Positions 47,979 to 64,000 of a DNA stretch of 64,000 nucleotides are shown here, piece after piece. Numbering within the stretch: position 1 is the stretch's first letter; every line of letters begins with the position of its first letter. Under the pieces are notes generated by a model. The model was not told the origin of the DNA. It saw only the letters and a list, made by a program, of their open reading frames with translations, and ran no database searches. The stretch is from an uncultured Halieaceae bacterium (GTDB lineage: Bacteria; Pseudomonadota; Gammaproteobacteria; Pseudomonadales; Halieaceae): NCBI GenBank assembly GCA_938074045.1, contig CALJGI010000015.1, positions 56,019 through 120,018 on the forward strand, in the 5' to 3' direction. The translations under genes and the position numbers were made by a program.

Positions 47979-50234
47979 ATGAAGTTCAGTACAGTTTTTA
48001 AGCGTGTCTTGTCGACTCTGGTTTTTCTCATGATCTGCAGCCCCTCCGTGGCTGCGCCGTTTTCTGCATGCCCCAATGAGGCATTTCTGACTCAGGGCAA
48101 ACCAGGGGTGCTCTATGGCGTTAATCTGACCAGTGGGCAGTACGATTTACTGAGCGAACTCAACACCGTGAATAAACTCAATGGTATGGGCTTTAATTAC
48201 CATGATGGCTATTTATACGCCTGGTATTATGAAGGGCAGACCCTCGCCAGAATTCATGCCGACTACTCCATAGAGCCGCTTACCCTGCAGCCGGCTTTGT
48301 CGCTGCAATACTACGTAGGTGACACTTCAGTTGCGGAAAATGCGCACTTCCTGTATCGAAAAAATGGAGATGACGGTGGACTTTGGCGCATAGAGCTTGA
48401 CCCGTCCGGGCAGGATTATCTTGCGGCGACTCGGATAGCCACCACCAGCAACCTCTACCTCAACATATTCGATATGGCTTTTCACCCATCGGACGGCTTT
48501 ATCTACAGCGTGGATAATATCGGTCGCCTGTACCGAATATCACCCGCCAATGGCAGCAGGACCGTGTTAGGAAATGTCGGTGAGTCAGGCACCTTTGGTG
48601 CGGTTTACTTTGATGCGGGTGGTCAGCTTTATATCAGTCGAAATCAGGATGGTCGTATTTTCAGAATTGACCCAAATGACGCGTCACCCACGGCTCAGTT
48701 CTTTTCCTATGGGCCAGCGTCCAGCAACAACGATGGCGCTCGATGCGCTCTGGCACCGGTTGCTGAGCCGGCGACGCCCTCTATGGATTTCGGTGATGCG
48801 CCCATCAGCTACGGCACCCGCATGGCGGAGAATGGCGCTCGCCATGTGGTAGTCAGTGGTATTCGACTGGGTGGCAAGATAGATGCTGAGAACAGGGCTT
48901 TCCTGGCGCCAGACGAGTCCGATGATGCCAAGGATGGCAGCGATGATGAAGATGGCGTGCAGGTTGTGACATCCATTACCCAGGGTGAGCAGGCAATTTT
49001 GCAGGTGGCTACCACTGGCAATGGGTTCCTGAATGTATGGATTGATCTGGACCGTAACGGTACTTTTGATGGCGCTGATCAGTTGGTCACAGATCTGGAG
49101 CTGTCAGGCTCGACACATTTTGTCACCATGGATGTACCTGCGGAATCTGCCATTGGACCAAGCTGGATGCGGGTACGCTACGCCAGCACCGTGGGCCTGT
49201 CTGCAACCGGAGCAGCGAGTGATGGTGAGGTTGAAGACTATCCCATCGAAATCACGCGACCTTCAACTAAGGTAGAGTATTACCCTTCAGAATCCGGGGT
49301 GGTAACCGTCGCCTTTGAGGATCTTTGGCCATCGGTCGGTGACTACGATCTGAATGATCTCGTAGTCTATTTGCGTACCTCCATCACATCAGACACAGAC
49401 GCTGGACAGCGGATCAGACAGATATCGGTTGAAGGTGAGTTTGCCGCGGTTGGGGCGGCATTTCACAGTGGCTTTGCCATTGCCATTCCCGGGCTCAAGA
49501 CTAAAGACGTAGATTATGCCAAGACGGAATTGCTAATAGATGGAAAAATTCCAACCGCTGTATCTGGCGGTACCATTGGGGAATTTCAGCCATTACAGGG
49601 AATAGCTATTGCGCAAAATCAGAATGCGCTGTTTGAGATAACCAGAGATTTGTGGAACGTTGTTGAAAAAGGTGAAGGCTGTGCCTTTTTCCGTTCCGAT
49701 AATAACTGTGGTGCGGCGAACAGAGTGCCGTTCTCGTTGGTGATCCCGGTGGTAGGTAACGTCCCCTTGTCGTCAATCGAGAAAGGAGCGTTTGATCCGT
49801 TTTTATTTGCAACCACGGGCTACGGAAGAAGCAGCATATTTGTGGACAGCCAGGGTAATCCATTGGCGCCCGGAGATGGGCTCGAAATCCACCTCAAAAA
49901 TCAATTGCCAACCTGGCGTGCTGATCAGGCTTTGCTGGGACGGTCTTCTGATCGCTCACAGTCCGCCACGCTTAATGCCGCGGGTAGTCCCGTCAGCTAT
50001 CAGACAGCCAACGGTTTGCCATGGGCAATTGAGGTGCCTGCCAGGTGGTGTTATCCCTCCGAATATCAGGATCTATCAATCGCATATCCTGATTTTCCGT
50101 TGTTTGTGCTCAGTAACGGCACCCAGGCCAGGAACTGGTATGTCGTCGGCAATGCCGCTTCACACCCCACCCGGGGAGCAGCGGGATATCTCTACAAACA
50201 AGACGGTTTGCTTGATGCAAGTTGTGCGCAATAA
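47979..50234 (+). CDS. Secreted LruC-domain protein with GEVED domain and N-terminal repeat (DUF6923-like) region
   Basis: It has a signal peptide ending SVAAP and repeated ...DGxLY... propeller-like units. DFGDAPISYG...DDEDGV...DGEVEDY marks a GEVED domain, and VAFEDLWPSVGDYDLNDLVV is the LruC/DUF4842 signature. Confidence 0.75.
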   Translation: MKFSTVFKRVLSTLVFLMICSPSVAAPFSACPNEAFLTQGKPGVLYGVNLTSGQYDLLSELNTVNKLNGMGFNYHDGYLYAWYYEGQTLARIHADYSIEPLTLQPALSLQYYVGDTSVAENAHFLYRKNGDDGGLWRIELDPSGQDYLAATRIATTSNLYLNIFDMAFHPSDGFIYSVDNIGRLYRISPANGSRTVLGNVGESGTFGAVYFDAGGQLYISRNQDGRIFRIDPNDASPTAQFFSYGPASSNNDGARCALAPVAEPATPSMDFGDAPISYGTRMAENGARHVVVSGIRLGGKIDAENRAFLAPDESDDAKDGSDDEDGVQVVTSITQGEQAILQVATTGNGFLNVWIDLDRNGTFDGADQLVTDLELSGSTHFVTMDVPAESAIGPSWMRVRYASTVGLSATGAASDGEVEDYPIEITRPSTKVEYYPSESGVVTVAFEDLWPSVGDYDLNDLVVYLRTSITSDTDAGQRIRQISVEGEFAAVGAAFHSGFAIAIPGLKTKDVDYAKTELLIDGKIPTAVSGGTIGEFQPLQGIAIAQNQNALFEITRDLWNVVEKGEGCAFFRSDNNCGAANRVPFSLVIPVVGNVPLSSIEKGAFDPFLFATTGYGRSSIFVDSQGNPLAPGDGLEIHLKNQLPTWRADQALLGRSSDRSQSATLNAAGSPVSYQTANGLPWAIEVPARWCYPSEYQDLSIAYPDFPLFVLSNGTQARNWYVVGNAASHPTRGAAGYLYKQDGLLDASCAQ

Positions 50235-50264
50235 CTATTGGATCACCATCGGGAAGAAACCACA

Positions 50265-51203
50265 ATGAAACACGATTATAGACGGAACATTTACATCAGT
50301 GCTGCCTTTGCCATTGGCTTGAATACGTCGGGATGTGTATACACGTCCTTGTCGTCATCCACGCATGCTGAGCTATATCGCTGGGATGATAGCGGCTTGA
50401 CACTCGTTGCCAGTAGAAACGTTATGGAAGACCGTGAATCGAATCGATACTTCAACTTCTCAGACATCCTCATAAAAGACAAAACGCTGGAACAGCTTGG
50501 TGATGCACCTTACGTATTCAGAAGCTGTGATGTGGCTGTATGCCATGAAATAGTACTGTTCCACGACAACGTGGAGGAAGGACCGCACAATCTGCTGATC
50601 GGTGGGTTTGCAGCGTCCGGGTTGTCCACGGCAATGTACCGTGAGGTAGCTGATCTGGACCCAGCTGATGCCCGGCAGGCCCTCAATGAGTTGGCGGCAC
50701 AATTGCTTCGTGAGCCAGGACTGGATAATCACTATACAGAATTTGTGCAGCTCGACCTGAGCGCGGCGCAGGATAATGCGAAACTCAAGAGTGTTGCCTG
50801 GGAAAGTTATGCTCAGGAGGCGATAAGCTCAGGAGAGGAGATGTCGATAAATCAGATCGTACGTTCCAGTGTTACCGCTACGCGAGATCTATCAAGCGAC
50901 GCTGATTTTACGTTCTCCACAGCGCAGAACATTTTTCTGGATATCGATGTATCGGAACGCATGACAGACAATGTTCATTTATCTGTATGCGGAGACTTCC
51001 AGAAGTCAGGTATTGGTTACCTGGTGAACTATGCTGACTGTCAATTGAAAGTGATGATGTTAGATGGCAGCTACCAGGGTAGTTTACGACAATCTCAGGC
51101 AGGGGGAGAGCTCCTGATTACCCTACTGCCGGTCAGCAGCCCGGAAGATATTGAGTATTTTCTGTGGGACAGTGCGGTTGAAAATATATTTTCTGTGCGG
51201 TGA
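50265..51203 (+). CDS. Hypothetical lipoprotein
   Basis: MKHDYRRNIYISAAFAIGLNTSGC has a lipobox-like end. The gene follows the LruC gene by 30 nt. I recognised no family. Confidence 0.55.
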   Translation: MKHDYRRNIYISAAFAIGLNTSGCVYTSLSSSTHAELYRWDDSGLTLVASRNVMEDRESNRYFNFSDILIKDKTLEQLGDAPYVFRSCDVAVCHEIVLFHDNVEEGPHNLLIGGFAASGLSTAMYREVADLDPADARQALNELAAQLLREPGLDNHYTEFVQLDLSAAQDNAKLKSVAWESYAQEAISSGEEMSINQIVRSSVTATRDLSSDADFTFSTAQNIFLDIDVSERMTDNVHLSVCGDFQKSGIGYLVNYADCQLKVMMLDGSYQGSLRQSQAGGELLITLLPVSSPEDIEYFLWDSAVENIFSVR

Positions 51204-51318: not shown

Positions 51319-51978
51319 TTAGTAAGCGCCTCGCGCTGACAGCACTGCGGGCACTGTGCGGATAAGAATGAGGAGGTCGGTCAATACAGAGCGGTTGTCG
51401 ATATACTCCAGATCCAGTCGTACCTGATCAGTGAAGGGTAGCTCAGATCTTCCGGATATTTGCCAAAGGCAGGTAATCCCCGGTACAACGGCGAGGCGCT
51501 GCATCTCGTAGCTGCTGTATTCGGCAACTTCGGAAGGAATTGGTGGGCGGGGGCCAACCAGCGTCATATCACCAGAAACAACATTCCACAGTTGCGGCAG
51601 CTCGTCGACTGAAAACTTTCTGATCCATTTCCCAAGCCGGGTGATACGTGGATCCTGGCGTATCTTGAAAGTGGGGCCGTCACTGATTTCATTGCTGTCT
51701 GACAGCATGTTTTTAATTGCTTCGGCGTCTACCACCATTGACCTGAACTTCCAGCACGTGAAATGGCTGCCGTCTTTTCCTACCCTCGTCTGTCCGAAAA
51801 GGACTGGCCCTGGACTGTCTAATTTAAGCGCTGCTGCTACCAGCAGTAGGAAGGGTAGGGCTACCAGCAGAGCGATGCCTGCCACAGCTATATCTATGGC
51901 TCGCTTGATCATTTCATAGGTGGTAACAGATTGGATGTGCAGGGTTGAGTAGGCCCACAGGTTTGTTATTCGTTGCAT
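51319..51978 (-). CDS. Polyprenyl-phosphate sugar-phosphate transferase (Bac_transf family; WbaP C-terminal-domain-like priming enzyme)
   Basis: It has the motifs KRAIDIAVAGIALLV, SPGPVLFGQTRVG, FKIRQDPRITRLG, DELPQLWNV..GDMTLVGPRP. I chose ATG 51978 (GGAGA upstream) because ATG 52014 would lie upstream of the predicted sigma-54 transcription start. ATG 51912 is also possible. Confidence 0.85.
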   Translation of the reverse strand: MQRITNLWAYSTLHIQSVTTYEMIKRAIDIAVAGIALLVALPFLLLVAAALKLDSPGPVLFGQTRVGKDGSHFTCWKFRSMVVDAEAIKNMLSDSNEISDGPTFKIRQDPRITRLGKWIRKFSVDELPQLWNVVSGDMTLVGPRPPIPSEVAEYSSYEMQRLAVVPGITCLWQISGRSELPFTDQVRLDLEYIDNRSVLTDLLILIRTVPAVLSARGAY

Positions 51979-52020
51979 TGTAGAGTTCTCCAGAATGTCC
52001 TTGTTGACACTCATCTACGT

Positions 52021-52036
52021 CGCAAACCGCGTGCCA
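52021..52036 (-). promoter_or_regulatory. Sigma-54 (-24/-12) promoter candidate for the priming transferase gene
   Basis: The minus strand reads TTGGCACG-CGGT-TTGCG, a perfect TGGCACG-N4-TTGC core. The predicted +1 is near 52010. Confidence 0.65.
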
Positions 52037-52101
52037 ATCCTACAACTAATTGAAATACATGAAGAAATCTTTGTGATGCTTGAGATGGCGTGTAGATTCA
52101 C

Positions 52102-52113
52102 TGCAATTTGCAA
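52102..52113. promoter_or_regulatory. TGCAATTTGCAA motif (TGCAWWWTGCAA family; inverted repeat TGCAA-T-TTGCA) between the divergent sigma-54 promoters
   Basis: It lies 65 nt from the minus-strand -24 element and 133 nt from the plus-strand -24 element, which is enhancer-like geometry. Confidence 0.4.
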
Positions 52114-52244
52114 AGCCTTCTGCAACTCATGCTGCGCCATGCTAATAAATCCGGTCGCTACGAATTCTGCGTTGCTAGGCTCAGAACCTATAAAAACAGT
52201 AATTTTTGAGTATTTTTTACGGCTTTATTTGGCGTCAGGAAAAC

Positions 52245-52260
52245 TGGCACGAACTCTGCA
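52245..52260 (+). promoter_or_regulatory. Sigma-54 (-24/-12) promoter candidate for the DUF6492-GT4-flippase-sulfotransferase operon
   Basis: The sequence is CTGGCACG-AACT-CTGCA, with invariant GG and GC at the correct spacing and one mismatch to TTGC. The predicted +1 is near 52271, the RBS GGAGAG is at 52283-52288 and the ATG is at 52296. Confidence 0.6.
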
Positions 52261-52295
52261 TTCCCTTGTGTAGATGCCAATTGGAGAGACTAAAA

Positions 52296-53174
52296 ATGCA
52301 GCAAGAGAAGTTGACCGAGACAGATATAGCGCTGGTCACGTGTTCATACGGCCCAGATTTTAAGCGTTGCCAGCGGCTGTGCGCCAGTGTGGACCAGTAT
52401 GTACCTGCGGCGATTGAACATATTCTGGTGGTCCCAGCAGAAGATCAAAAACTATTCAGTCAATTAGGTACTGGCAATCGAGTCATTGTCAGCGTTGAAG
52501 ACACTCTTCCATGTCGCTTCTCCCGAATTCCAATGACGAGAAAGTGGTGGCTGGGACCAAACTTTTGGCCCGTTCGCGGATGGATGTTGCAACAGCTCAC
52601 CAAATTGAGCGCGGACAGGCTGACGGACCGAGAGCTCATCATGTTTGTGGATTCGGACATCGAGTTTATTCGACCGCTGCTGACAGGACTGATTGTGCAA
52701 GGGGAATTGTGCCGACTGCACCGTCATCCTGGAGAGAAAAATACTGGAGAACACCTTAGGTGGCATCACATGGCAGCAGAGGTCCTCGATCTACCTAAAC
52801 AGTACTTCGGTAGTGATTATATTGCGCCTCTGGTCACATGGCGAAGAAGCAATCTGATCAGCTTGAAAAACATTATGCAGATACGTTCACAGCTGCCATG
52901 GCATGAATTATTGCTGCGGCGATTAACTATGTCTGAGTACATTTTATATGGAGTTTATGTTGAACATGTGTTGGGCGAGGACAACAACGGCCATTTCCCG
53001 GACGATGGGACACTTTGTCATTGCTGTTGGTTTGGTGAAGACGCCAATTTGTTGAATCGTGAACAGCGCGTCAGTGATTCTTCCCTTGCGGTTCTCATTC
53101 AATCCAATATCGGCCTGTCTGTTGATCATGTCGATGCCTTGATGCAGCAAGTACGCACCCAACTGGCACGTTAG
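52296..53174 (+). CDS. DUF6492-like protein, putative GT-A-like nucleotide-sugar transferase
   Basis: It has IALVTCSYGPDF... and a DxD-like motif FVDSDIEF. It is the first gene of the plus-strand polysaccharide operon. The family call is from memory. Confidence 0.5.
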   Translation: MQQEKLTETDIALVTCSYGPDFKRCQRLCASVDQYVPAAIEHILVVPAEDQKLFSQLGTGNRVIVSVEDTLPCRFSRIPMTRKWWLGPNFWPVRGWMLQQLTKLSADRLTDRELIMFVDSDIEFIRPLLTGLIVQGELCRLHRHPGEKNTGEHLRWHHMAAEVLDLPKQYFGSDYIAPLVTWRRSNLISLKNIMQIRSQLPWHELLLRRLTMSEYILYGVYVEHVLGEDNNGHFPDDGTLCHCCWFGEDANLLNREQRVSDSSLAVLIQSNIGLSVDHVDALMQQVRTQLAR

Positions 53175-53186
53175 GAGACACCCGTG

Positions 53187-54440
53187 ATGAAGAAAATGCT
53201 GTTTCTAACATCGGAATTACCCTGGCCATTGCATAGTGGTGGTAAATTAAAGACCTTCAAGCTGCTGGAATCACTGGCATCAAAGTATGATGTAACACTC
53301 GTATGCCCTTTGAAAGGTGAAGACGAGCAATATCTCAATGAGTTTTGTCGTCTATCGCCATGCCGAATTCATCTGCATGAGCCCGTTGATCGTGCCAGAA
53401 ATGCGACTAACCTGGTAAAGAGCTATATCGCCGGTGTACCACTGAATGTACTGCGGAGTTATAGCGAGCAGTTGGCGTCGAGGACACGCAAAATAGCTGC
53501 ACACTTCGACGTGATCTTTCTCGATCACTATGAGTTGCATTACTACATACCGCAATCTCAGTTTGGGAAAGTGATTTATCACGCTCACAACACCTACCAC
53601 AAGATTTGGCAAACCTACGCGGCGACGCCAGGCAATATCTTATTTAGAGCGGCTGCATGGCTGGAGTTTAAGCGGGTTAAGACCTGCGAGAAGCGGCTGT
53701 GTAAAAAGGTAAGGTTAGTACTGGCTGCACCTGGCGATATTGAAATCCTGAGTCAGGGTTTGTCAGGCTCCGTGCCATTCCACCCGACATACCACTTGGG
53801 AAACAGCTCTCAGCTGACCATGCCAGATCTGGCGTTTGATCGATCAAAGCATAAGTTGGTCTACGTTGGTTTTCTTGGCTGGGAGCCGAATTCAGCAGGA
53901 CTGTTGTGGTTTATTGAGCGGGTTTGGCCCAGGTTGGTCAATGTGTTTCCCGAGCTTACCTTTGACATTGTAGGCAAAAACCCGGATCAGCGACTGTCTT
54001 CGGCTGTAGCCCAACACCGGGGGATTACGCTCTGTGGCTTTGTTGAAGATCTGGAAACGGTCTACCAGCAAGGGAGTGTTTCTGTTGCCCCTTTGCTGTT
54101 TGGAAGCGGCATGAAAGTTAAGGTATTAGATGCTATGTCCCGCGGATTGCCCGTGGCAACTACCTCGATCGGGGCTGAGAGCATTGCCTGTGACCATGGA
54201 GAGCATCTAATGATCGGCGATACTCCAGAGTTGATGACTGAGAACATTACTCAATTGTTGCGTGATGAAGGGCTATGGAATCGATTGCAGCTCAGTTCTC
54301 GTCAACTTATTCGCGAACACTATACCTGGGAATCCATGTTTTCCGAGATGCACAGGGTGATCGACTGTTTGGATATCTGCGTGACCGACCGCAGAAGTAG
54401 CGACGTGATGTTGCAATTGTCGCTGGTTGGAGAGCGCTAG
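53187..54440 (+). CDS. Glycosyltransferase family 4 (GT-B, Glycos_transf_1)
   Basis: The N-terminus is MKKMLFLTSELPWPLHSGGKL. The C-terminal region LVYVGFLGWEPN...SGMKVKVLDAMSRGLPVATTSIGAE carries an EX7E-like motif. Confidence 0.8.
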   Translation: MKKMLFLTSELPWPLHSGGKLKTFKLLESLASKYDVTLVCPLKGEDEQYLNEFCRLSPCRIHLHEPVDRARNATNLVKSYIAGVPLNVLRSYSEQLASRTRKIAAHFDVIFLDHYELHYYIPQSQFGKVIYHAHNTYHKIWQTYAATPGNILFRAAAWLEFKRVKTCEKRLCKKVRLVLAAPGDIEILSQGLSGSVPFHPTYHLGNSSQLTMPDLAFDRSKHKLVYVGFLGWEPNSAGLLWFIERVWPRLVNVFPELTFDIVGKNPDQRLSSAVAQHRGITLCGFVEDLETVYQQGSVSVAPLLFGSGMKVKVLDAMSRGLPVATTSIGAESIACDHGEHLMIGDTPELMTENITQLLRDEGLWNRLQLSSRQLIREHYTWESMFSEMHRVIDCLDICVTDRRSSDVMLQLSLVGER

Positions 54441-54443
54441 CAC

Positions 54444-55742
54444 ATGACGAGCCTATGCAAAATGAGTGTATTGGCTCTGAGTCGGGGCTTTGCAGTCTGC
54501 GCCCAGTTCGCCGTGCAAATTATAGTGGGTTATGTGGCGGGAGCGGCAGCCCTGGGAAGTTATCAATTGTTTACGGTGTGGTCGGCAATCCTGGGTGAGG
54601 GTATTGGCCGTGGTTTGCCAACCGGTACGATGAAAAAGGTCAGCGTGAATTTTGCAGAGGGAAAGTTATCGTCTATTTCGAATTGGATGGCATGGTCCTG
54701 TCGCGAGATAATCAGAGGTTGCGTGCCTCTCTTTTTACTATTCGTTCTGTTTTCGCTAGCGGCACGGATAGCCGGACTGCAAGTCAGTGATACTGCATTG
54801 GCATTTTGCGGTGGCGTCCTCCTTGCCGCGCCCTTGTTTGCCCTGAGTCGGGTTTATGCTGAAGCATTGAAGGCTATCGAACGACAGGTATTCGCCGTCG
54901 CAGTTGAAAACCTCATGGTCCCTGCATTCATATTGCTGCTGTGTGGTGTCTATGTAATTTTTGGATTGAGCGTCAATGAGGTGGCTCTTTTGATGGCATT
55001 TTCTGCCGCAGTTCTGTCTTCTTATTTGATAATGAGGCGAGCGCTTTTGAGATCCCTTTATGGCCTTTTGAATTCTTCTAAAGGCACAGAGTCTTGCCTG
55101 CCTCATTCTCGGGAGCTTAAGTATTTTTGGTTAATCGGATTACTCAATATTTGTTCATTGCAGATGCCTTTCCTTGTGCTTCCCTTATTCGCAGATTTGG
55201 CGGAGATAGGAGTGTTTGCTTTAGCCTTTAAGTTCATTAATGTGGTCACCACGATTCTCCTACTTTTATCGGCGGTATATAGTCCGCGCATGGCTCGCGC
55301 CGCGGCTATACACGATGTTTCCGGACTCCGCAGTCTGCTGCAGCAGACGCAGCTGATATCTGTGTGCGTATTTGTACCCTTAACCGCGTTTATCTACTTA
55401 AGCAGTGGATATATATCTGAATATCTGGGAGAAGACTTTGTAGGAGTCAAGGCTTTCTATCTTATTCTTGCCGTAGGCTATTTGTTCAATGCGGCGACCG
55501 GGTTACAAGGCGTACTGCTTAACATGGCGGGCGCTGCAAAGTTTGAAACCATTATTTCGGTTATTGTGATGGTAGTGTCTTTTTTTGCAGCGCTGGCATT
55601 CGGTCACCAGTACGGCGTAACTGGCGTTGCCATGGTATTCACCTGTGCTATTGCTTTAAAGAATATAGCGTCATATCTGGTGGCACTGTACTGGTTGAAT
55701 CACCTGGAAGTGGCCTCAAGAGATTTGGTGGTGGCTGTATGA
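54444..55742 (+). CDS. Polysaccharide flippase (Wzx-like, MOP superfamily)
   Basis: The protein is 432 aa with ~12 predicted TM segments and sits inside a glycan locus. It overlaps the sulfotransferase start by ATGA. Confidence 0.7.
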   Translation: MTSLCKMSVLALSRGFAVCAQFAVQIIVGYVAGAAALGSYQLFTVWSAILGEGIGRGLPTGTMKKVSVNFAEGKLSSISNWMAWSCREIIRGCVPLFLLFVLFSLAARIAGLQVSDTALAFCGGVLLAAPLFALSRVYAEALKAIERQVFAVAVENLMVPAFILLLCGVYVIFGLSVNEVALLMAFSAAVLSSYLIMRRALLRSLYGLLNSSKGTESCLPHSRELKYFWLIGLLNICSLQMPFLVLPLFADLAEIGVFALAFKFINVVTTILLLLSAVYSPRMARAAAIHDVSGLRSLLQQTQLISVCVFVPLTAFIYLSSGYISEYLGEDFVGVKAFYLILAVGYLFNAATGLQGVLLNMAGAAKFETIISVIVMVVSFFAALAFGHQYGVTGVAMVFTCAIALKNIASYLVALYWLNHLEVASRDLVVAV

Positions 55743-56689
55743 GAGATACGCGCAGAGAGAACGCTCTGGATTTTGTGATTGTAGGCGCACAAAAATCAGC
55801 AACAACATCTTTGTTTGAAATACTTAAAAACCACCCCCTCATCAGCTTGCCTATTGAAAAGGAAGTGCCGTTTTTTTCTGGTGATGATTTCGACCCCAGG
55901 CTGTGGCCCCGGTTTATGCAGTGTCACTTCGATGCAGCCTCACCCGGACAGATACTGGGAAAAATAAGCCCACAGTACATGTGTGACAGGCGGGTTGCAG
56001 GACGACTGGCCGGGCTGATGCCAGAAGTGCGGGTGATAGCTATATTACGAGATCCCATTGAGCGCAGCTGGTCGCATTTCCAAATGGGTAAGCGGCGGAT
56101 GACTGAGGAGAGGGATTTTTCAGGGGCGGTACGCGAGCTACTGGAGATCGATGCTCAGGAAAAAGCGGTATCACAAACGCCTCCGACCCACGCTGATGGT
56201 TATGAGTCGGAAGGCGATTTTTATCTGGCCTGGAGTGAATATGGTCGCCAGCTTACGGAGTTTTACCAGCACTTCTCCAGCGACCAGATACTGGTGCTTT
56301 TCACAGAAGACCTGAAGCGCGACCCGCAGTTGGTTATTGATCGCGTTCTGGCTTTCATAGGTCTTGCATCCGGTTACTCGCCAGCAAATCTCTCAACCAG
56401 ATCTCACCAGGGCGGGGGCGGTATGAAAATTTCTCACAACGTACGGGAGTGGTTTCGGCAGTGCCCACCCGTAGGTTGGCTGTGGTCACTGGTGCCGCCG
56501 CGTATACAGGGGAGAATCCGGTTCAAATATGAGCAATGGAACATTAGCGGGAGAGACGATCAAATGCCCCTGTGTGATGACCTGCGACAACTCCTTTATT
56601 CGCATTTTGCGAGAGACTTGAATCGCCTGAATGACTATGTCGAGTTGCTGCCGGAATGGAAATCGAGATATCGCCTGGATCTGCAGTAG
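55739..56689 (+). CDS. PAPS-dependent sulfotransferase (heparan-sulfate sulfotransferase-like, Sulfotransfer_1 type)
   Basis: It has the 5'-PSB loop FVIVGAQKSATTSL and the 3'-PB motif ILRDPIERSWSHF. Confidence 0.75.
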   Translation: MRDTRRENALDFVIVGAQKSATTSLFEILKNHPLISLPIEKEVPFFSGDDFDPRLWPRFMQCHFDAASPGQILGKISPQYMCDRRVAGRLAGLMPEVRVIAILRDPIERSWSHFQMGKRRMTEERDFSGAVRELLEIDAQEKAVSQTPPTHADGYESEGDFYLAWSEYGRQLTEFYQHFSSDQILVLFTEDLKRDPQLVIDRVLAFIGLASGYSPANLSTRSHQGGGGMKISHNVREWFRQCPPVGWLWSLVPPRIQGRIRFKYEQWNISGRDDQMPLCDDLRQLLYSHFARDLNRLNDYVELLPEWKSRYRLDLQ

Positions 56690-56707: not shown

Positions 56708-56815
56708 TGCCTCCGGCGACGCCTGCTGATAAATATTCGCAGTAGAAGCTAGTGTTGCTACAGGAATAGCGGTTAAGTTACTGTTATTAAAGCATAAAAG
56801 ATGGGTTGGCCCAAT

Positions 56816-56831
56816 TGGCATTCGCCTTGCA
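56816..56831 (+). promoter_or_regulatory. Sigma-54-like -24/-12 element directly upstream of the exporter gene
   Basis: The sequence is TTGGCAT-TCGCC-TTGCA, with GG and GC at the correct spacing. The predicted +1 (~56842) abuts ATG 56843, so no leader or RBS would exist. Confidence 0.35.
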
Positions 56832-56842
56832 CTACATTGGGT

Positions 56843-59737
56843 ATGAAAACATATATTGCAATTTTCCGAGGGGTTTGTGCCGCCGCACTGGTCGTCTGGA
56901 GCGGGTCTTTGATGGCTTCTACTTATGAACCTTTTGTTGAACCTCTGGCGGCGGAACAACAGCGTCAATACCAGCAAGCAGGTGCGCGGGGTGCGGATGC
57001 TCCCCTGCAACCGCCTCAGGTTCCTCTCACGATAACGGTGCCGTCGGCCGTTGCGTCGACACTCACAGCACTTGACGACTCCGTTACTGATCGTCTGGGT
57101 GCCGTGACGGCGCTGGAGCGGCCGGTTGACCAGAAATTGGACATGCCGTTGCCGCATTTTGGGTATGACCTGTTCAATGTCGTACCGAGCACCTTTGCGC
57201 CGGTTGATAGCATACCAGTGCCGGCTGATTACAAGATCGGCCCTGGTGATACGTTGGTTATCCAACTGTTTGGAAACCGTAATGTTGAATTTACCCTGGT
57301 AGTCACCCGCGATGGTCAGATACTGATCCCTGAATACGGTCCACTGGCGGTAAGTGGGCTAACCTTTGATGAAGCTGAACGGCTGATCGTTGAGGGGTTT
57401 GAGCAGCGGGTTATTGGTGCGAAGGCGGTCGTCTCAATTGGTAAATTGCGCACCATCCAGGTAAGGGTGACTGGTGACGTAAACCAGCCCGGTATCTATA
57501 CCGTGGGCGCTCTGACCACCCTCATCGATGCCCTGATTGTGACGGGCGGAGTAAAGACGACGGGGTCCTTGCGCCGCATTCGGTTATACCGTGGTGATGT
57601 CATGGTCAGTCAGCTCGACTTATACGATCTGCTACTTCGCGGCCACACCAGGGGAGACGCCACACTTCGTCATGGCGACACCATCTTTGTGCCCGCTCTG
57701 GGCCCAGTCGCCTATGTTGCGGGTGAGGTCCAGCGACCCGCTATATACGAGCTGCTAGGCAAAGTTCAGCTGGACTCATTGATCGACATGGCCGGAGGAC
57801 TGCTGCCGGGAGCCTCCCTGACTTCATCTCATATTGAGCGAATCTCAGTTGGTGCAGGCAAGACCATCATTGATCTTGGCTCCATTGGTAAACGTTCTCT
57901 TGAAGATATTACAGTCGTCAATGGTGATCTTCTGCGGGTGCTGCCCAAGGAAGATCGACTGGATAATGTGGTTTTCCTCGAGGGACACGTGCGTCGTCCT
58001 GGTGGTTATCAGTTTCTGGAGCAGATGCGGCTCTCAGAGTTGATCTCAGGTCCAGAGGAATTGCTCCATGGCGCGGATATAGGCTTCGCCGCCATTCGGC
58101 GTGAAAACCCGACCACTCTGCGCACGGAGATAATCTATTTCAAGCCAGAAGAGTTATTTGGAAACCGTGGTGGCGCGCCAGATATTGCGCTCGTTAATCG
58201 CGATGTTGTTATGTTTTTTCGCGCCGCTGAGGCCAGAGAGAAAGTTTTGGCGGGTCTGGTCAAGGAGTTGCGTGAGCAGGCCGGTCACGGCCGACCCCCG
58301 CATACGATCGTTGTCAGTGGCTCGACCAAACATACGGGAACGTTTCCATTGCAAGCGGGAGCGCGATTGCTGGATGTAGTAGCTCTGGCTGGCGGTGTGC
58401 GTAGCGACACCGACCGTGCCTATGTTGTGGTGTCCAGCATGGACGAAGGTGATGACCAACTCTCCATGCGCGCGGTGGATCTTGAAGCGGCTACGCGATT
58501 TCCCGAGCACGATGATAACCTGCTCATTCGCCCGCGAGACAAAATCTATTTCTTTGGCGTGAACTCCGACCGGTCCGCGCTCATGGAGGACGACCTGTAT
58601 ACATTGAGGGAACAAGCAAGGTATGGCGCTGAGGTATTGACTGTGGGTGTGCTGGGTGAGGTATCTGCCCCCGGCACCTATCCTCTTGAGCCCGGCATGC
58701 GGACCAGTGATCTTGTTTGCGCAGCGGGTGGTTTGACCCGAAAGGCTGCTGGACTCAATGCCAGTCTTTCCCGTCACAGCAAGGATGGGCAAAGCCAGAA
58801 GCTGGTAGAGCATATCCAGATCGATATCGTGGCATTACTCAGCTTGTGTGAATATAGATTAGCGGTAAAACGGGGTGATGCCCTTTCGGAGGCACAGCAC
58901 CTCTACATGTCCCGGCTGGCTGAAATGGCTGACGATTATGTGCTGCAACCGATGGATCAGCTGGCGGTTAGTGTCAAGGCAAACTGGGTTGAAAAGTCGG
59001 TCGTGTATCTATCTGGTGAAGTGATTAATCCAGGTTCTTACGTTATTGATCCTGGAGAAACTCTTTGTGAAGTGCTGCAAAGAGCTGGTGGTATTACTAA
59101 TCGCGCTTATCTCCTGGGTGCTGTATTTACCCGTCAATCTGCTCTGGAAATGCAACAAAAAACCATCGAGCAGATACAGGGGCAACTGGATGAGCTAATG
59201 GTTGAGTTGTCGCTTTCTCACTCTGCACGCAACGCAGAAAAGAATGCCGAAAATGTGGGTGACAAGCGGGATTATCTGAACGTCATTAATCAGTTGGAAC
59301 GAGCCAAGCCTACTGGTCGGGTAGTGATTGATCTTGAGGAGCAATTGCGCTGTCGGCGCAAGTCGCAAATGGCGTTGCAAGACGGGGATCGACTGGAAGT
59401 CCCCATTCGACCTGACTTTGTCATGGTTTCCGGACAGGTATACGTGCCGACCAGTCAGCAGTACACGAAGGAAAGAACCGTCGCTGACTATGTAAAGCTC
59501 AGTGGGGGTCACACAGTATTGGGGCGACTTAACGACACATTTGTTATTCAGCCCAATGGTGAAGTATTGAACTATAGCGGAAGACGTCGCTCGTCCTCTA
59601 TTGCGCACAGGCATGTTATGCCCGGCGCCAGAATTTTTGTGCCGCTGAACGTGGATCGAATGAATGCCACTGAGAAGGCGCAGAGCTGGGTTAGCTCGCT
59701 GACGCAGGCAGCTTTGTTGGCGGGGTTGGTGTTGTGA
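56843..59737 (+). CDS. Very large outer-membrane polysaccharide export protein (Wza/OPX family; Poly_export domain plus about seven SLBB repeats)
   Basis: It has a signal peptide MKTYIAIFRGVCAAALVVWSGSLMA and the Poly_export motif YKIGPGDTLVIQLFGN. Iterated G-x-V-x2-PG-x-Y units are present (VTGDVNQPGIYTV, VAGEVQRPAIYEL, LEGHVRRPGGYQF, VSGSTKHTGTFPL, LGEVSAPGTYPL, LSGEVINPGSYVI, VSGQVYVPTSQQY). The C-terminus is hydrophobic (WVSSLTQAALLAGLVL). Confidence 0.8.
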   Translation: MKTYIAIFRGVCAAALVVWSGSLMASTYEPFVEPLAAEQQRQYQQAGARGADAPLQPPQVPLTITVPSAVASTLTALDDSVTDRLGAVTALERPVDQKLDMPLPHFGYDLFNVVPSTFAPVDSIPVPADYKIGPGDTLVIQLFGNRNVEFTLVVTRDGQILIPEYGPLAVSGLTFDEAERLIVEGFEQRVIGAKAVVSIGKLRTIQVRVTGDVNQPGIYTVGALTTLIDALIVTGGVKTTGSLRRIRLYRGDVMVSQLDLYDLLLRGHTRGDATLRHGDTIFVPALGPVAYVAGEVQRPAIYELLGKVQLDSLIDMAGGLLPGASLTSSHIERISVGAGKTIIDLGSIGKRSLEDITVVNGDLLRVLPKEDRLDNVVFLEGHVRRPGGYQFLEQMRLSELISGPEELLHGADIGFAAIRRENPTTLRTEIIYFKPEELFGNRGGAPDIALVNRDVVMFFRAAEAREKVLAGLVKELREQAGHGRPPHTIVVSGSTKHTGTFPLQAGARLLDVVALAGGVRSDTDRAYVVVSSMDEGDDQLSMRAVDLEAATRFPEHDDNLLIRPRDKIYFFGVNSDRSALMEDDLYTLREQARYGAEVLTVGVLGEVSAPGTYPLEPGMRTSDLVCAAGGLTRKAAGLNASLSRHSKDGQSQKLVEHIQIDIVALLSLCEYRLAVKRGDALSEAQHLYMSRLAEMADDYVLQPMDQLAVSVKANWVEKSVVYLSGEVINPGSYVIDPGETLCEVLQRAGGITNRAYLLGAVFTRQSALEMQQKTIEQIQGQLDELMVELSLSHSARNAEKNAENVGDKRDYLNVINQLERAKPTGRVVIDLEEQLRCRRKSQMALQDGDRLEVPIRPDFVMVSGQVYVPTSQQYTKERTVADYVKLSGGHTVLGRLNDTFVIQPNGEVLNYSGRRRSSSIAHRHVMPGARIFVPLNVDRMNATEKAQSWVSSLTQAALLAGLVL

Positions 59738-60678
59738 TGATCAATCACTCAGAGCACTTGGTTGCGCCTCCGACCGCTGCGTTGGAAATAGACCTGTGGC
59801 CCTATGTGGCTGCGCTGTTGGAATCCTGGCGTTTGGTATTGATGGCGGGTGTGCTCGCTGGAGCACTGGCTTATGTTGCTGGACAGATGGCGTCGCCCCT
59901 GTATGAGTCATCAGCGCGAATCAGCGTTGTGGATATCGAGGATCCGGGCGGCGTGTCACCGGATGATCGGCGGGCACCAGAAGTGCTCACCCTGGTGGAG
60001 CATGGATTCATCATGGGTACTACGCGAGATAATTATGACCAGGTGATGTTGGCCCGCTTGCGATCGCGTCAGTTTGCGCAGCTTTTTCTGGACACATTCA
60101 ATATTTATAAGCATATGTTTCCGGAGCATTGGGACAACGTGCAGGACGATTGGAAGAACGGTTTCGAACTGGACCGTGGACTCGCCTTTACAATATTCAG
60201 AGACAGTGTTCGCCTGATCGAGCATGACGAAGAGACCGACATAATCACTGTGAAAATGCAGTGGCCAGATGCGCTCCTGGCAAAAGAATGGGTGAATAAT
60301 TACATCGTTTTATTCAACGACTACATGCGAAAAAAGACTCTTGGCGACGTCGAAAAAAAGCAGAGCTTTCTGATCGAGGAATTGAAGAAGTCGGAGTTGG
60401 TAGATATTGAACGTTCGATATACCGATTGATAGAAGCACAGACTGCGATCGCCATGCTGGCGCATGCGCGCGAGGAATATGTACTGGAAGTCATAGACCC
60501 GGGTGCACTGCCCTACGCGAGCGTGAGTATGTCCCCAAGGAAAAGAGCGCTGTTGGGTTTTATGACCGGCTTGTTGCTGTCTGTTTTCTTCTTGTTTTGC
60601 AAAATCTTATTGATTCGTTTACTGGCGCGTTTTCGCCAACATCAAGAGACCTATCAGGTCGATATTTATGAGAAATGA
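59734..60678 (+). CDS. Wzz-like polysaccharide co-polymerase / chain-length determinant (no kinase domain)
   Basis: It has an N-terminal Wzz motif region with TM1 (WRLVLMAGVLAGALAYVA), a coiled-coil periplasmic region and a C-terminal TM segment (LLGFMTGLLLSVFFLF). It overlaps the exporter stop. Confidence 0.7.
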   Translation: MMINHSEHLVAPPTAALEIDLWPYVAALLESWRLVLMAGVLAGALAYVAGQMASPLYESSARISVVDIEDPGGVSPDDRRAPEVLTLVEHGFIMGTTRDNYDQVMLARLRSRQFAQLFLDTFNIYKHMFPEHWDNVQDDWKNGFELDRGLAFTIFRDSVRLIEHDEETDIITVKMQWPDALLAKEWVNNYIVLFNDYMRKKTLGDVEKKQSFLIEELKKSELVDIERSIYRLIEAQTAIAMLAHAREEYVLEVIDPGALPYASVSMSPRKRALLGFMTGLLLSVFFLFCKILLIRLLARFRQHQETYQVDIYEK

Positions 60679-62254
60679 TATGACACATGCAGCTCTTTAT
60701 GACGAACGTCAGTTTGTTAATTCGCTCGGTATTCCAGTGGATAACCTGACAATGCACGAGGCGGTGGAAGAGGTGATCAAACTCGCCAGACGTAGGGATG
60801 GCAGATCCCGCTGGGTAGCGACTCTGAATGTTGATTTTCTGACCAATTCACTGGGGTTTGGTTTTGCAAAGCCTCGGCACCCCGAACTGCTGGACGTACT
60901 CAGAAACTCGGATCTTGTGACCGCCGACGGATTTCCGATTCTGTGGCTGAGCCGGATGACGGGCCATACCCTCAAACAGCGTGTAACCGGTGCAGATCTT
61001 ATGCCAGCTATCGCAGCGCGTTCCGCTCAAGAAGGCTTGTCTTTGTATTTGTTGGGTGGAGCGCCAGGAAGCGCAGAGGACGCTGCTGCGATTTTGCAGG
61101 AGCAAAATCCCGGCCTGGCGATAGCTGGATGCGCTGCACCATACATTTCAACTTCAGGACCACAGCTGGTCAATTGGTCAGATGATGATGATGCCATAGT
61201 GGAATTGATCAACAGCTCTGGCGCCGATGTTCTCTTTATTGGATTGGGCAATCCCAAGCAGGAACTATGGTTTAGTCGCAACAGGGAACGTTTGAATGTA
61301 CCTGTATCTATGGGTGTGGGTGGCACCTTCGAGTTTATTACCGGGCGGGTAGCTCGAGCGCCCCAGTTGTTGCAACGCTGTAACCTGGAGTGGGCCTATC
61401 GAATAACGAGGGACCCCCAGCGTCTGTGGAAGCGATATGCGGTGGGTGTTGTAAAGCTGACCATACTTGCAGCGCCTCTATTGTGGCTTCGACTTATAGA
61501 TACTTATTACAACCTTGCACATCCGGTGAAAAAGGGTACTGCGGTTTGGAAAACAATCTGGTCTTCGAAAGCCAGATCGATCCAGCTGTGTCGGCTACCT
61601 GCGCAAGTCATTGATGAGCACTTGATGGACATAGTGCGACGCCAGCGTATGCCATTATGTGGAGACAGTCTTTTGTTTATAGACTTTTCGGCGGTTGATC
61701 ATGTCGACCTGGCGGCGCATCATCATTTTTTCCGCCTGGCGGCATTGGCCGGCAGTCCAGGCCGCGATGTGCAATTGTTGGGTGTTTCACCGGATTTACA
61801 GCGTCGATTAGGCGCGAGCCGGTTGATTGATCTGTTTGATTCCTCTGTTGCGGGTGATTCAATTTCCTCGTTGAGAGATCTGAATTCGGCGGATGAATCT
61901 GGTTTTGGATGCTCCAGTTATGTGCTCGAAAGCAGCGCCATCATCTTTCTCAGCGGCAAGGTTACCGGTGCAAGTCTGAACGGGATCGGATTCCAGGAGT
62001 GTTTGTTACAGAACACCAGGCAACGTACATGTGTTCTGGACATGAGGCGGGTTGATGCCGTGGATACGTCGGGGCTGGCTGAGTTGTATGCGGCTTGCGC
62101 AGCTGCAGCCGAGGAAGGCGGCGCCGTGCTAGTTAGTGGGGCTGGAGAACTCACCAGGCAGGCCATGAGAATCTGTGGCCTGGATTGGCCGGTTGAGTTC
62201 ATTGATGATCTGGAAATGTTGTCCTGGATTGTTGGCGAGGCATCTCGTGCCTGA
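60668..62254 (+). CDS. WecB/TagA/CpsF (GT26) glycosyltransferase fused to two C-terminal STAS domains
   Basis: GT26 motifs occupy aa ~20-262 (GIPVDNLTMHEAV, VATLNVDFL, ADGFPILWLSR, YLLGGAPG, GLGNPKQELW, MGVGGTFEFITGRVARAP, EWAYRITRDPQRLWKRY). STAS1 spans aa ~295-395 (LLFIDFSAVDHVDLAA...VQLLGVSPDLQRRL). STAS2 spans aa ~415-520 (CVLDMRRVDAVDTSGLAEL...VLVSGAGELTRQAMRICGL). Confidence 0.75.
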   Translation: MRNDMTHAALYDERQFVNSLGIPVDNLTMHEAVEEVIKLARRRDGRSRWVATLNVDFLTNSLGFGFAKPRHPELLDVLRNSDLVTADGFPILWLSRMTGHTLKQRVTGADLMPAIAARSAQEGLSLYLLGGAPGSAEDAAAILQEQNPGLAIAGCAAPYISTSGPQLVNWSDDDDAIVELINSSGADVLFIGLGNPKQELWFSRNRERLNVPVSMGVGGTFEFITGRVARAPQLLQRCNLEWAYRITRDPQRLWKRYAVGVVKLTILAAPLLWLRLIDTYYNLAHPVKKGTAVWKTIWSSKARSIQLCRLPAQVIDEHLMDIVRRQRMPLCGDSLLFIDFSAVDHVDLAAHHHFFRLAALAGSPGRDVQLLGVSPDLQRRLGASRLIDLFDSSVAGDSISSLRDLNSADESGFGCSSYVLESSAIIFLSGKVTGASLNGIGFQECLLQNTRQRTCVLDMRRVDAVDTSGLAELYAACAAAAEEGGAVLVSGAGELTRQAMRICGLDWPVEFIDDLEMLSWIVGEASRA

Positions 62255-63284
62255 GTCGCTTACTTATGTTGTGCTGCTCAATTACAACAACTGGCGGGAC
62301 ACGGTTGCCTGTTTAAGTTCACTTTTTCACACCTGTGCCGCGAGGATTCGCGTCGTGGTCTGTGACAACGCCTCTAGTGATGGCAGTCTGGCGCGCATTA
62401 AGCAGTGGGCGGATGGGCATTGTGACGTGGCCGACCTGGGTCACCCAAGACTAAATGCGCTGGTTCAGTCGCATGATCAGGGAATCAGGCACGTGGTTCT
62501 GAATAGTGAATTCCTGGCCACTGATAGATCCCGGCATGAAGGCGTACCATTGGTGTTGATTGATAATGGTTGCAACGGTGGTTTTGCCGCCGGATGCAAT
62601 GTGGGCATGCGCTTCGCTCTTCAGCAGCCGGACATGACCCATGTCTGGCTGCTGAACAATGACACCGTGGTGGAACCGGATTGTCTCGCAGCCATGCACC
62701 GACGTCTAGCGCGCAGTGCATCGGACGCCGTGTGTGGTTCCATGATTCATTTTTTCGATCAGCCCGAGATGATTCAGGCCGTGGGTGGAAATCGATTCAA
62801 CCGGTTCACGGGTGCTGCCGCATGCTCGGAAGGCAGGTTTTTGTCGGAGCACCAAGACATTGATATTGAGCGAATAGAGGCAGAGCTGGACTACCTAAGT
62901 GGTTGTTCAATGCTGTTGCCGCGCCGTTTTCTCGATCAGGTCGGATTGATGAGCGAGGACTATTTTCTTTATTACGAGGAAATTGACTGGTTTACCCGCG
63001 CATCCGGGGCCTATGACTGCCGCATTGCCAGAGATGCGCGCCTGTACCATCGTGAGGGTGGTTCCATTGGTTCTCCCGGGTTGGACCGGCCAACCCCTTC
63101 ACTGCTTGCGGACAAACATATTTTTCGCAGCAAGCACATTTTCATGGCACGGTACTACAAACAGCGCCTGATCTGGTGCTACCTGCATACGGCGATAGAG
63201 GGTCTGAAGCGAGTTCTGAAGGGGCAGTTCAGCAATGCCCGGACCGTATTCTCAGTCCTGTCTGAACGTGCCACCGCCGGTTAG
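62247..63284 (+). CDS. Glycosyltransferase family 2 (rhamnosyltransferase-like)
   Basis: It has YVVLLNYNNWRDT, VVCDNASSDGS, NGGFAAGCNVG and LLNNDTVVEPD motifs. I chose GTG 62247, which overlaps the upstream stop by 8 nt. Confidence 0.8.
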   Translation: MPESLTYVVLLNYNNWRDTVACLSSLFHTCAARIRVVVCDNASSDGSLARIKQWADGHCDVADLGHPRLNALVQSHDQGIRHVVLNSEFLATDRSRHEGVPLVLIDNGCNGGFAAGCNVGMRFALQQPDMTHVWLLNNDTVVEPDCLAAMHRRLARSASDAVCGSMIHFFDQPEMIQAVGGNRFNRFTGAAACSEGRFLSEHQDIDIERIEAELDYLSGCSMLLPRRFLDQVGLMSEDYFLYYEEIDWFTRASGAYDCRIARDARLYHREGGSIGSPGLDRPTPSLLADKHIFRSKHIFMARYYKQRLIWCYLHTAIEGLKRVLKGQFSNARTVFSVLSERATAG

Positions 63285-63288
63285 CTCT

Positions 63289-64000
63289 GTGAGCTTTATT
63301 GCGTCAGATGCCGGCCATGCATTACGCGCTTTGAGATTCTCGGTAAGGCTGAGCGAATGGATACCAATGGTGCTTATCTTTCTGTACGTGTTTGCAGGGT
63401 GTCAGGGTGGCAGGTACTACCTGGCAAACCGGCTACAGGAGCTGGGTATATTAAGTGCCATGCTGCTGTTATTGATCGGCGGCTGGCAGGCCATGTACCG
63501 CTTGTCTCTGAGGGAGTGGGCTGCCTGGTGTTTGAAGCCTGTAGCGCTGATGCTGGGCGTGATGGGAATTAGCTCACTGGTGTTTTACTTCAACTACTCG
63601 GGTAATCCGCTGTACAGCTTTTTCTCTGCGCGAGAGGTAATGTTACTGATGGGTGGCCCAGGTATCTATCTGCTGTATCGCAGCGACTTGCCTCTTTCAT
63701 GTATTGAAAGAGCGATATACACCGGGTTGCTGGCGCTCATGCTGAACTACCTGTTCTTCTACTACACCATGGATTTAAAGGCAGCCTTTTTCTCCAGTGA
63801 TCACACCGTGAGCAACTTGGTCACCTACGACGAGTGGCGGGGCTTCCGGCTGAAGCCGCCACTGTTTGCCGTCATGGTCGTGTTACTCAGTGCGCTCATG
63901 GCGATGCTGCAGGGCGGCAAAGGTTGGTTGAGGTGGCTGTCTGTGCTGGCTTTCAGCGCGGCCTGCTACATCTGGTCCATCGTTTTGTTTCGATCGATAT
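63289..64000 (+). CDS. Polytopic membrane protein, probable polysaccharide polymerase (Wzy/O-antigen-ligase-like); 3' end outside window
   Basis: I translated this frame by hand and it is open from 63289 to 64000 with no stop. It is absent from the ORF track because it has no stop in the window. The sequence is highly hydrophobic (VLIFLYVFAG..., LLLLIGGWQAMY..., LMLGVMGISSLVFYF...). The start is GTG 63289, TTG 63331 or ATG 63367. Confidence 0.6.
   Translation, partial: MSFIASDAGHALRALRFSVRLSEWIPMVLIFLYVFAGCQGGRYYLANRLQELGILSAMLLLLIGGWQAMYRLSLREWAAWCLKPVALMLGVMGISSLVFYFNYSGNPLYSFFSAREVMLLMGGPGIYLLYRSDLPLSCIERAIYTGLLALMLNYLFFYYTMDLKAAFFSSDHTVSNLVTYDEWRGFRLKPPLFAVMVVLLSALMAMLQGGKGWLRWLSVLAFSAACYIWSIVLFRSI

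Follow-up and report, generated by a model that had tools for sequence, protein, structure and literature searches.

Polysaccharides that carry sulfate break down slowly, bind metals and are of value to biotechnology. Apart from cyanobacteria, few bacteria make them, and hardly any bacterial polysaccharide sulfotransferase has been studied at the biochemical level (PMC11625862, PMC11641403). We analysed a 64,000-nucleotide stretch of DNA (the window) from an uncultured Halieaceae bacterium (contig CALJGI010000015.1), which carries a sulfotransferase gene, here called ST, within an exopolysaccharide (EPS) cluster. The closest studied relative of ST is XssA (Sll5042), from the synechan (xss) cluster of Synechocystis sp. 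PCC 6803. Synechan has been shown chemically to be sulfated, with rhamnose, mannose, galactose, glucose and sulfate at ~1:1:1:5:2, and most xss mutants lose EPS (PMC8205485). In the xssA deletion mutant, EPS export is reported to be lost completely, with accumulation of unsulfated Und-PP-units. XssA and ST are homologous (25% identity over 265 aa, E 3e-17) and have the motifs DF-I-I-G-x-K-x-AT, KE-x-FFS and R-x-P-I-x-R-x-x-S in common; both clusters are of the Wzx/Wzy type, with a priming transferase, GT4 and GT2 glycosyltransferases, a WecB/TagA/CpsF glycosyltransferase and a flippase. However, XssA falls into a separate clade of our tree ('other', 97% support) and its gene is not adjacent to that of the flippase. 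The xss cluster further differs from that of ST in being cyanobacterial and plasmid-borne, in being regulated by XssQ/R/S and not by sigma-54/H-NOX proteins, and in having two sulfotransferases; XssE is far more distant from ST than XssA.

A second system, likened here by description, is the Wzx/Wzy cluster wps-1 of Actinoplanes missouriensis, in which WpsH has a predicted heparan-sulfate-type sulfotransferase domain and is lettered next after WpsG, the predicted Wzx, like the Wzx-ST order in our locus (PMC13390465). WpsH is genetically required for normal sporangium formation; unlike the ST cluster, wps-1 serves an actinomycete sporangium-matrix polysaccharide and has a second sulfotransferase, WpsB (PMC13390465). 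The capsules of the marine gammaproteobacteria Vibrio sp. KMM 8419 and Cobetia marina KMM 1449 also come with sulfotransferase genes, and their sulfation is chemically proven; they use ABC-transporter pathways with cysDNC in the cluster (PMC11641403, PMC11766843), whereas the locus described here is of the Wzx/Wzy type and takes the sulfate donor, 3'-phosphoadenosine 5'-phosphosulfate (PAPS), from elsewhere in the genome. We also observed a cluster on pSymB of Sinorhizobium meliloti (L094/L095; for example CP073680.1:769828-790604) with three sulfotransferase genes, one of them 28% identical to ST, together with a PIG-L deacetylase, an outer-membrane polysaccharide export (OPX) protein, GT4, an O-antigen-ligase-like gene, a polysaccharide co-polymerase (PCP) and a pectate lyase.

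The kind of system is thus already known, and ST is an expected further example of it; genomes commonly have sulfotransferase genes within Wzx/Wzy loci, which makes such a gene unsurprising in itself. Notable here are the strict coupling of ST to a Wzx-like gene across orders, the perfect co-occurrence of ST with its cluster, and the presence of that cluster in cultivable strains. Taking the evidence together, we consider it likely that ST is a soluble cytoplasmic, PAPS-dependent carbohydrate sulfotransferase fixed in a Wzx/Wzy-type EPS system, acting by the mechanism set out below, and that the exported EPS is probably sulfated.

The sulfotransferase and its structural relatives

The ST gene and its motifs, with invariance judged over an alignment of 38 family members, are as follows (PSB, phosphosulfate-binding loop; PB, phosphate-binding motif; HS, heparan sulfate; 3-OST, HS 3-O-sulfotransferase):

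55739-56689, + strand: sulfotransferase gene ST, 316 aa; ATG 55739 is the earliest start codon in frame
55781-55813, + strand: 5'-PSB loop VGAQKSATTSL (aa 15-25); Lys19, Thr22 and Thr23 invariant
55862-55864, + strand: Glu42, candidate catalytic base (K-E-V-P-F-F), invariant
55961-55963, + strand: Lys75 (G-K-x-x-P-Q-Y), invariant and aligned to Lys215 of 3-OST-3
56048-56080, + strand: 3'-PB motif RDPIERSWSHF (aa 104-114); Arg104 and Ser112 invariant
56231-56248, + strand: W-S-E-Y-G-R motif (aa 165-170), family-specific and invariant; not in HS enzymes
56405-56416, + strand: H-x-G-G loop (aa 223-226); H223 and G225 invariant; a low-confidence loop of the model

Profile searches matched ST to Pfam Sulfotransfer_3 (PF13469; 46.9 bits, E 5.4e-12, cut-off 27) and Sulfotransfer_1 (PF00685; 39.2 bits, E 6.6e-10, cut-off 22); a search of the NCBIfam profiles matched no family. 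When the Protein Data Bank (PDB) was searched with the ST sequence, the top match, over the full length, was 3rnl (E 6.6e-17), a structural-genomics entry for a sulfotransferase of Alicyclobacillus acidocaldarius, followed by 3-OST-1/3/5 (~1e-9) and the sulfotransferase domain of NDST1 (6e-8). A profile of the 38-member family gave the same relatives (3rnl, 7.8e-26; 3-OSTs, 1e-17 to 1e-19; NDST1, 1e-14). TAL-effector repeat proteins that appeared in this profile search had zero significant stretches and were set aside as artefacts of repeats or composition. An AlphaFold2 model based on the 38-member alignment reached a mean predicted local distance difference test score (pLDDT) of 89.2 and a predicted template-modelling score (pTM) of 0.85. 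Foldseek returned 106 PDB matches to it at E<=1e-3, the best 50 of which were sulfotransferases throughout, in the order 3rnl (E 3.3e-12), NDST1, 3-OSTs, and then the curacin sulfotransferase, tyrosylprotein sulfotransferases and cytosolic SULTs. 3rnl is the best match in both sequence and fold and, like ST, comes from a bacterium; the two proteins fall into one length class, at an identity of only ~22%. Far beyond chance, ST is a real gene of the PAPS sulfotransferase superfamily, and PAPS-dependent activity is predicted from its sequence and model. ST has no hydrophobic segment (peak 19-residue hydropathy 1.25) and neither a transmembrane segment nor a signal peptide; it is therefore a soluble enzyme, located in the cytoplasm. 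The sequence-only reading of this open reading frame (ORF) had recognised both PAPS-binding signatures, which indeed stand at residues 15-25 and 104-114, and the sulfotransferase fold that it proposed was borne out by the Pfam matches above cut-off and by the model.

Seven residues, K19, T22, T23, E42, K75, R104 and S112, are invariant in the 38-sequence alignment, and the loop G16-A-Q-K19-S-A-T22-T23 comes after strand 12-16 of the model. The C-terminal half has invariant motifs of its own (PxHxxGYESE, WSEYGR, HxGG and RFxYExWN). WSEYGR is likely to be an acceptor-side element. The model is less certain around H-x-G-G (pLDDT 57 at residues 221-230), whose His also occurs in 3rnl; this region is possibly a flexible loop that closes over PAPS.

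The HS 3-OSTs and NDST1 are animal Golgi enzymes acting on heparan sulfate. ST has in common with them the fold, the 5'-PSB Lys, the 3'-PB Arg/Ser and the Glu in (K/N)-E-x-x-F-F, and its 3'-PB stretch R104-D-P-I-E-R-S-W-S112 aligns to RDPSERVLS of 3-OST-1. The catalytic base is Glu184 in 3-OST-3 and Glu90 in 3-OST-1 (PMC8341778). Residue pairs counted along the HMMER alignment, with the residue list of the same source (PMC8341778), match K19 to Lys162 (5'-phosphosulfate), E42 to Glu184 and K75 to Lys215 of 3-OST-3. However, R166, H186 and D189, the residues of 3-OST-3 that contact the HS substrate, are replaced in ST by T23, P44 and S47, of which T23 and P44 are invariant in the family and S47 is variable. 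HMMER aligned ST residues ~7-113 to 3-OST-1/3 and the C-terminal stretches weakly or not at all, including the K-x-R of Lys368 and Arg370; template-modelling (TM) scores of the ST model to the HS enzymes were 0.5-0.65. The resemblance to HS sulfotransferases asserted in the sequence-only reading therefore extends to the fold and to the PAPS and base residues and stops at the HS substrate residues. Judged by these alignments, ST works like an HS-type sulfotransferase yet lies outside the HS 3-OST and NDST families.

These comparisons also bear on the bond that is formed. The NDST1 domain was one of the best fold matches and reached the highest query TM-scores (0.59-0.65); of the eukaryotic enzymes it also gave the longest sequence alignment to ST (residues 12-211), and the G-x-Q-K 5'-PSB of ST resembles that of NDST. 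ST might on these grounds be an NDST-like N-sulfotransferase whose target is the free amine of an amino-sugar residue within the repeat unit. Within this fold, O- and N-sulfotransferases use the same Glu base, so that sequence does not tell them apart. However, profile searches of the cluster found neither an aminotransferase nor a deacetylase of the PIG-L, YdjC or polysaccharide-deacetylase type, whereas the S. meliloti pSymB cluster has its PIG-L deacetylase. N-sulfation is less likely because the cluster is without a deacetylase, and we regard this alternative as improbable and O-sulfation as the better expectation.

Coupling to the Wzx-like gene and distribution of the cluster

ST is embedded in a polysaccharide cluster, as the sequence-only reading had it, and overlaps the stop codon of the gene upstream. 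The cluster in the window comprises:

51319-52014, - strand: priming polyprenyl-phosphate sugar-phosphate transferase (Bac_transf; Pfam and NCBIfam)
52206-53174, + strand: DUF6492 gene (Pfam DUF6492); true start probably ATG 52296
53184-54440, + strand: GT4 glycosyltransferase (Pfam)
54444-55742, + strand: Wzx-like MOP-superfamily flippase gene, 432 aa, ~12 hydrophobic segments
55739-55742, + strand: ATGA overlap of the ST start and the Wzx-like stop (TGA at 55740-55742)
56801-59737, + strand: long OPX exporter (Poly_export and SLBB repeats; Pfam)
59734-60678, + strand: Wzz/PCP-like protein; weak Wzz match (25.6 bits, cut-off 25.5)
60668-62254, + strand: GT26 (WecG/TagA/CpsF) glycosyltransferase fused to STAS domains (Pfam)
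62175-63284, + strand: GT2 glycosyltransferase (Pfam)
63235-64000, + strand: Wzy-like polymerase gene, truncated by the end of the window (449 aa in the full contig)

Position and topology of the gene upstream of ST are consistent with a MOP-superfamily, Wzx-like flippase. The profile evidence is weak: Pfam MatE matched marginally (27.3 bits, cut-off 24.9), NCBIfam WZX_like gave 17.8 bits against a cut-off of 300, and the orthologue of Congregibacter litoralis had a weak match to Polysacc_synt_3. The C. litoralis orthologue of the Wzy-like protein matches Wzy_C. Beyond the Wzy-like gene the contig continues with a sigma-54 response regulator, an H-NOX protein and a histidine kinase, assigned through their orthologues in related loci. 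The same gene order occurs in Congregibacter litoralis KT71 and Halioglobus.

We compared the cluster proteins with 80 related loci by tblastn. A Wzx-like gene lies directly upstream of ST in all 29 loci in which ST identity is >=37%, every one of them gammaproteobacterial. This pair is kept even where the other genes have been reshuffled, as in Rhabdochromatium, Thiohalomonas, Lysobacterales and Alteromonas lipolytica: the order is OPX-PCP-Wzx-ST-GT26 in Rhabdochromatium marinum, GT4-GT2-Wzy-Wzx-ST-DUF6492 in a metagenome-assembled genome (MAG) of Lysobacterales, and OPX-PCP-Wzx-ST followed by an inverted Wzy-GT2-GT4-DUF6492 in A. lipolytica. The overlap reported from the sequence alone is likewise genuine and conserved: a 4-nt stop/start overlap (xTGA) was found in 25 of 32 loci, counting only those in which the upstream ORF truly ends in that TGA (mostly >380 codons, or running to the locus start). 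A simple count of ATGA at the ST start gave 31 of 31 and was discarded as biased, since most ST orthologues begin Met-Lys. A reduced cluster was seen in five Halioglobus MAG loci (L006, L013, L015, L019 and L027), which are without DUF6492, PCP, GT2 and Wzy and have the order priming transferase, GT4, Wzx, ST, OPX and GT26-STAS, and then the sigma-54 regulator, H-NOX and kinase genes; this variant, too, retains the Wzx-ST pair.

The family to which ST belongs is extensive. A large protein collection held 327 homologues at E<=1e-3, all with both Pfam domains, and when a single genome of each prokaryotic species, bacterial or archaeal, was scanned, relatives were found at no fewer than 569 loci, in Gammaproteobacteria, Alphaproteobacteria, Actinomycetota (many of them Solirubrobacterales), Chloroflexota, Acidobacteriota, Bacteroidota and one archaeon. 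With the nearest solved structure also bacterial (3rnl), the family is a large bacterial one, and the label 'eukaryote-style' given to ST at first reading is misleading. The nearest homologues (47-54% identity) are from Halieaceae, namely Halioglobus, Congregibacter litoralis and IMCC14734. A maximum-likelihood tree placed ST in a clade of 26 rows with 99% support, 24 of which are Wzx-coupled gammaproteobacterial loci; the remaining two, labelled 'other', are duplicates of Congregibacter variabilis and NOR5-3. A survey of the family Halieaceae found an ST orthologue in 18 of 121 genomes (11 of 40 genera) and the GT26-STAS orthologue in the same 18 (18/18) and in none of the other 103. The cluster is thus an accessory, patchily distributed unit, and this perfect co-occurrence marks ST as a constant part of the cluster, as opposed to an extra that joins it now and then.

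The genome also has a second ST paralogue (319 aa; contig C45, 7014-7973, - strand), 35% identical over the N-terminal 127 aa, whose C-terminus, ELIGEQYDWD, we take to resemble that of animal 3-OSTs. It adjoins a 533-aa TPR-Sulfotransfer_3 protein, a TonB-dependent receptor-like gene and a GntR/aminotransferase-type regulator (region C45:2819-9940), lies near an IS21-like istA/istB pair, and stands outside polysaccharide clusters.

A gene for an LruC-like secreted protein (DUF6923/GEVED/DUF4842; window positions 47979-51203) adjoins the cluster. Three MAGs likewise have such a gene next to the cluster, one of the K189A clade, one of Pseudomonadales and another of Pseudomonadota (L025, L030 and L031); most Halieaceae loci are without it. 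ST could conceivably act on some other acceptor, such as lipopolysaccharide, a glycolipid, a small metabolite or this secreted LruC/GEVED protein, and sit in the cluster for co-regulation only. The bacterial relatives NodH, Stf0 and KpsS of the superfamily sulfate glycolipids and lipo-oligosaccharides (PMC11625862), tyrosylprotein sulfotransferases are among the weaker fold matches (E ~1e-5), and the LruC-like gene accompanies the cluster in the three loci just named. However, the adjacency of ST is specific to Wzx and outlasts the rearrangement of all other genes, the stop/start overlap is conserved, ST co-occurs with GT26-STAS (18/18 versus 0/103), and most loci with the Wzx-ST pair are without an LruC-like gene. 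An acceptor outside the EPS pathway is, in our view, unlikely.

Donor supply, proposed mechanism and acceptor

The sequence-only reading remarked that the window has no cysDNC or other PAPS-synthesis genes; this is correct for the 64 kb, and the donor is made elsewhere in the genome. The sole APS-kinase (adenosine 5'-phosphosulfate kinase) match of the genome lies on contig C6, at the head of an apparent sulfate-activation operon with a LysR-type regulator divergent to it (region C6:92962-97527):

C6:94021-94635: cysC, first gene of the apparent operon
C6:94652-95839: Sat-type ATP sulfurylase
C6:95914-96540: inorganic pyrophosphatase (ppa)
C6:96568-97527: DHH-family protein, a weak assignment (23.8 bits, under the Pfam cut-off; no NCBIfam match)

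The DHH protein could be a 3'-phosphoadenosine 5'-phosphate (PAP) phosphatase that recycles the by-product of the sulfotransferase. No CysD was found in the genome by profile search. The only PAPS_reduct-family gene (C4:468604-469254) encodes a protein that ends ECGLH and scores 156.5 bits against the PAPS-reductase equivalog NF002537 (cut-off 154), compared with 72.9 bits against the APS-reductase profile (cut-off 235). Since CysH is of the PAPS-reductase type and APS kinase is almost universal in the family Halieaceae (117 of 121 genomes), PAPS is an ordinary, housekeeping intermediate of sulfate assimilation in this bacterium; on the same two findings we rejected the idea of a cysC dedicated to sulfation. 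Because PAPS is supplied elsewhere in the genome, the lack of PAPS genes in the cluster is no argument against sulfation.

The mechanism that we favour would run as follows. The priming transferase together with the GT4, GT26-STAS and GT2 enzymes, and probably DUF6492, would assemble the repeat unit at the inner membrane face, with undecaprenyl phosphate as its carrier. ST would hold PAPS, drawn from the housekeeping cysC-sat-ppa operon, with Lys19, Thr22 and Thr23 at the 5'-phosphosulfate and Arg104 and Ser112 at the 3'-phosphate; Glu42 would deprotonate a sugar hydroxyl for in-line attack on the sulfate, and Lys19 would stabilise the leaving sulfate. One sugar of the lipid-linked unit would thereby be O-sulfated while the unit still faces the cytoplasm. 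The Wzx-like protein, whose message is shared and translationally coupled with that of ST, would then flip the sulfated unit, Wzy and PCP would polymerise such units, and the long OPX protein would export the product. PAPS is not available in the periplasm, and sulfation would therefore precede flipping.

ST might instead act still earlier and sulfate a nucleotide sugar or free sugar in solution, ahead of its incorporation; the enzyme is soluble and has no membrane anchor, and nothing in its sequence demands a lipid-linked acceptor. However, its coupling is to Wzx and not to a glycosyltransferase or sugar-nucleotide enzyme, which points to a late step, and in an archaeal N-glycan pathway assembly of the sulfated tetrasaccharide takes place on a single dolichol-phosphate carrier (PMC11980604). 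We consider a soluble acceptor very improbable and place the proposed O-sulfation on the lipid-linked unit.

Several observations weigh against the EPS assignment. Replacement of the HS substrate residues means that specificity is not transferable from the structural relatives; profile searches of the cluster found no nucleotide-sugar genes that would hint at the acceptor sugar; ST is only ~50% identical to any relative and has a long terminal branch in the maximum-likelihood tree (0.99 versus a median of 0.35); and our literature search on Halieaceae or Congregibacter with sulfotransferase brought up no paper connecting them with a sulfotransferase or a sulfated EPS. The long branch and the low model confidence at the H-x-G-G loop might even be taken to mean that ST is catalytically dead, or a purely structural partner of the flippase. 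However, all PAPS-binding and catalytic residues are intact and invariant over 38 sequences, and we give this explanation next to no credence. An active sulfotransferase serving the EPS pathway still accounts best for the locus.

Transcription unit, base composition and export

A sigma-54-like element precedes the genes that lead up to ST:

52245-52260, + strand: sigma-54-like -24/-12 element, one mismatch to TGGCAC-N5-TTGCW; heads DUF6492-GT4-Wzx-ST

Further elements of this kind, with one mismatch each, lie at 52021-52036 (- strand) and 56816-56831 (+ strand). Across the window the pattern shows no enrichment (46 occurrences versus 43 expected), so that the support for these sites is their position. 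No convincing terminator was found between 52260 and 56689, and ST would close a unit of four genes, DUF6492-GT4-Wzx-ST. Since the site at 52245 lies inside the DUF6492 ORF when this is called from TTG 52206, the real start of that gene is probably ATG 52296. The AlphaFold2 model of the DUF6492 protein (pLDDT 90.1) has a GT-A fold, in which the D119-S-D121 motif is invariant. Its best fold match was the Stealth-type 'exopolysaccharide phosphotransferase' CpsY of Mycobacterium tuberculosis, with GlcNAc-1-phosphotransferase and retaining GT6/GT8 enzymes ranking next; the PDB search gave no sequence relative, and a literature search on DUF6492 yielded no report. On the strength of its model, DUF6492 may attach either a sugar or a sugar-1-phosphate to the EPS repeat unit.

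A modest dip in GC content is usual for polysaccharide loci. Here GC is 47.5-48.5% across window positions 52001-56000, the first half of the polysaccharide locus, and 47.5-54% over the locus as a whole, compared with ~55-58% elsewhere (the 8-46 kb stretch upstream). The cluster proteins are 36-66% identical to any orthologue, those of a same-genus genome included. The dip and the low identities are compatible with an old, horizontally moved cassette; for the flanking Fe-ADH gene, the comparison with the same-genus genome gave 39% identity and is blurred by many paralogues.

The cluster is present in the cultivable strains Congregibacter litoralis KT71, C. variabilis IMCC43200 and gamma proteobacterium NOR5-3, and its compactness, with a single sulfotransferase, makes it a simple system for asking when and where sulfate joins in the Wzx/Wzy pathway. 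ST is never lost from the cluster, and its 4-nt overlap with Wzx spans several gammaproteobacterial orders. Because of this, one may speculate that sulfation is an obligatory licence for export, such that the flippase takes only the sulfated lipid-linked unit, or that Wzx and ST form a complex; we hold this to be doubtful at present. If it were true, and considering the sigma-54 regulator, H-NOX and kinase genes, a share of the abundant coastal Halieaceae would make a sulfated exopolymer upon nitric oxide, and these bacteria would be a heterotrophic source that has been little counted in the marine pool of sulfated polysaccharides.

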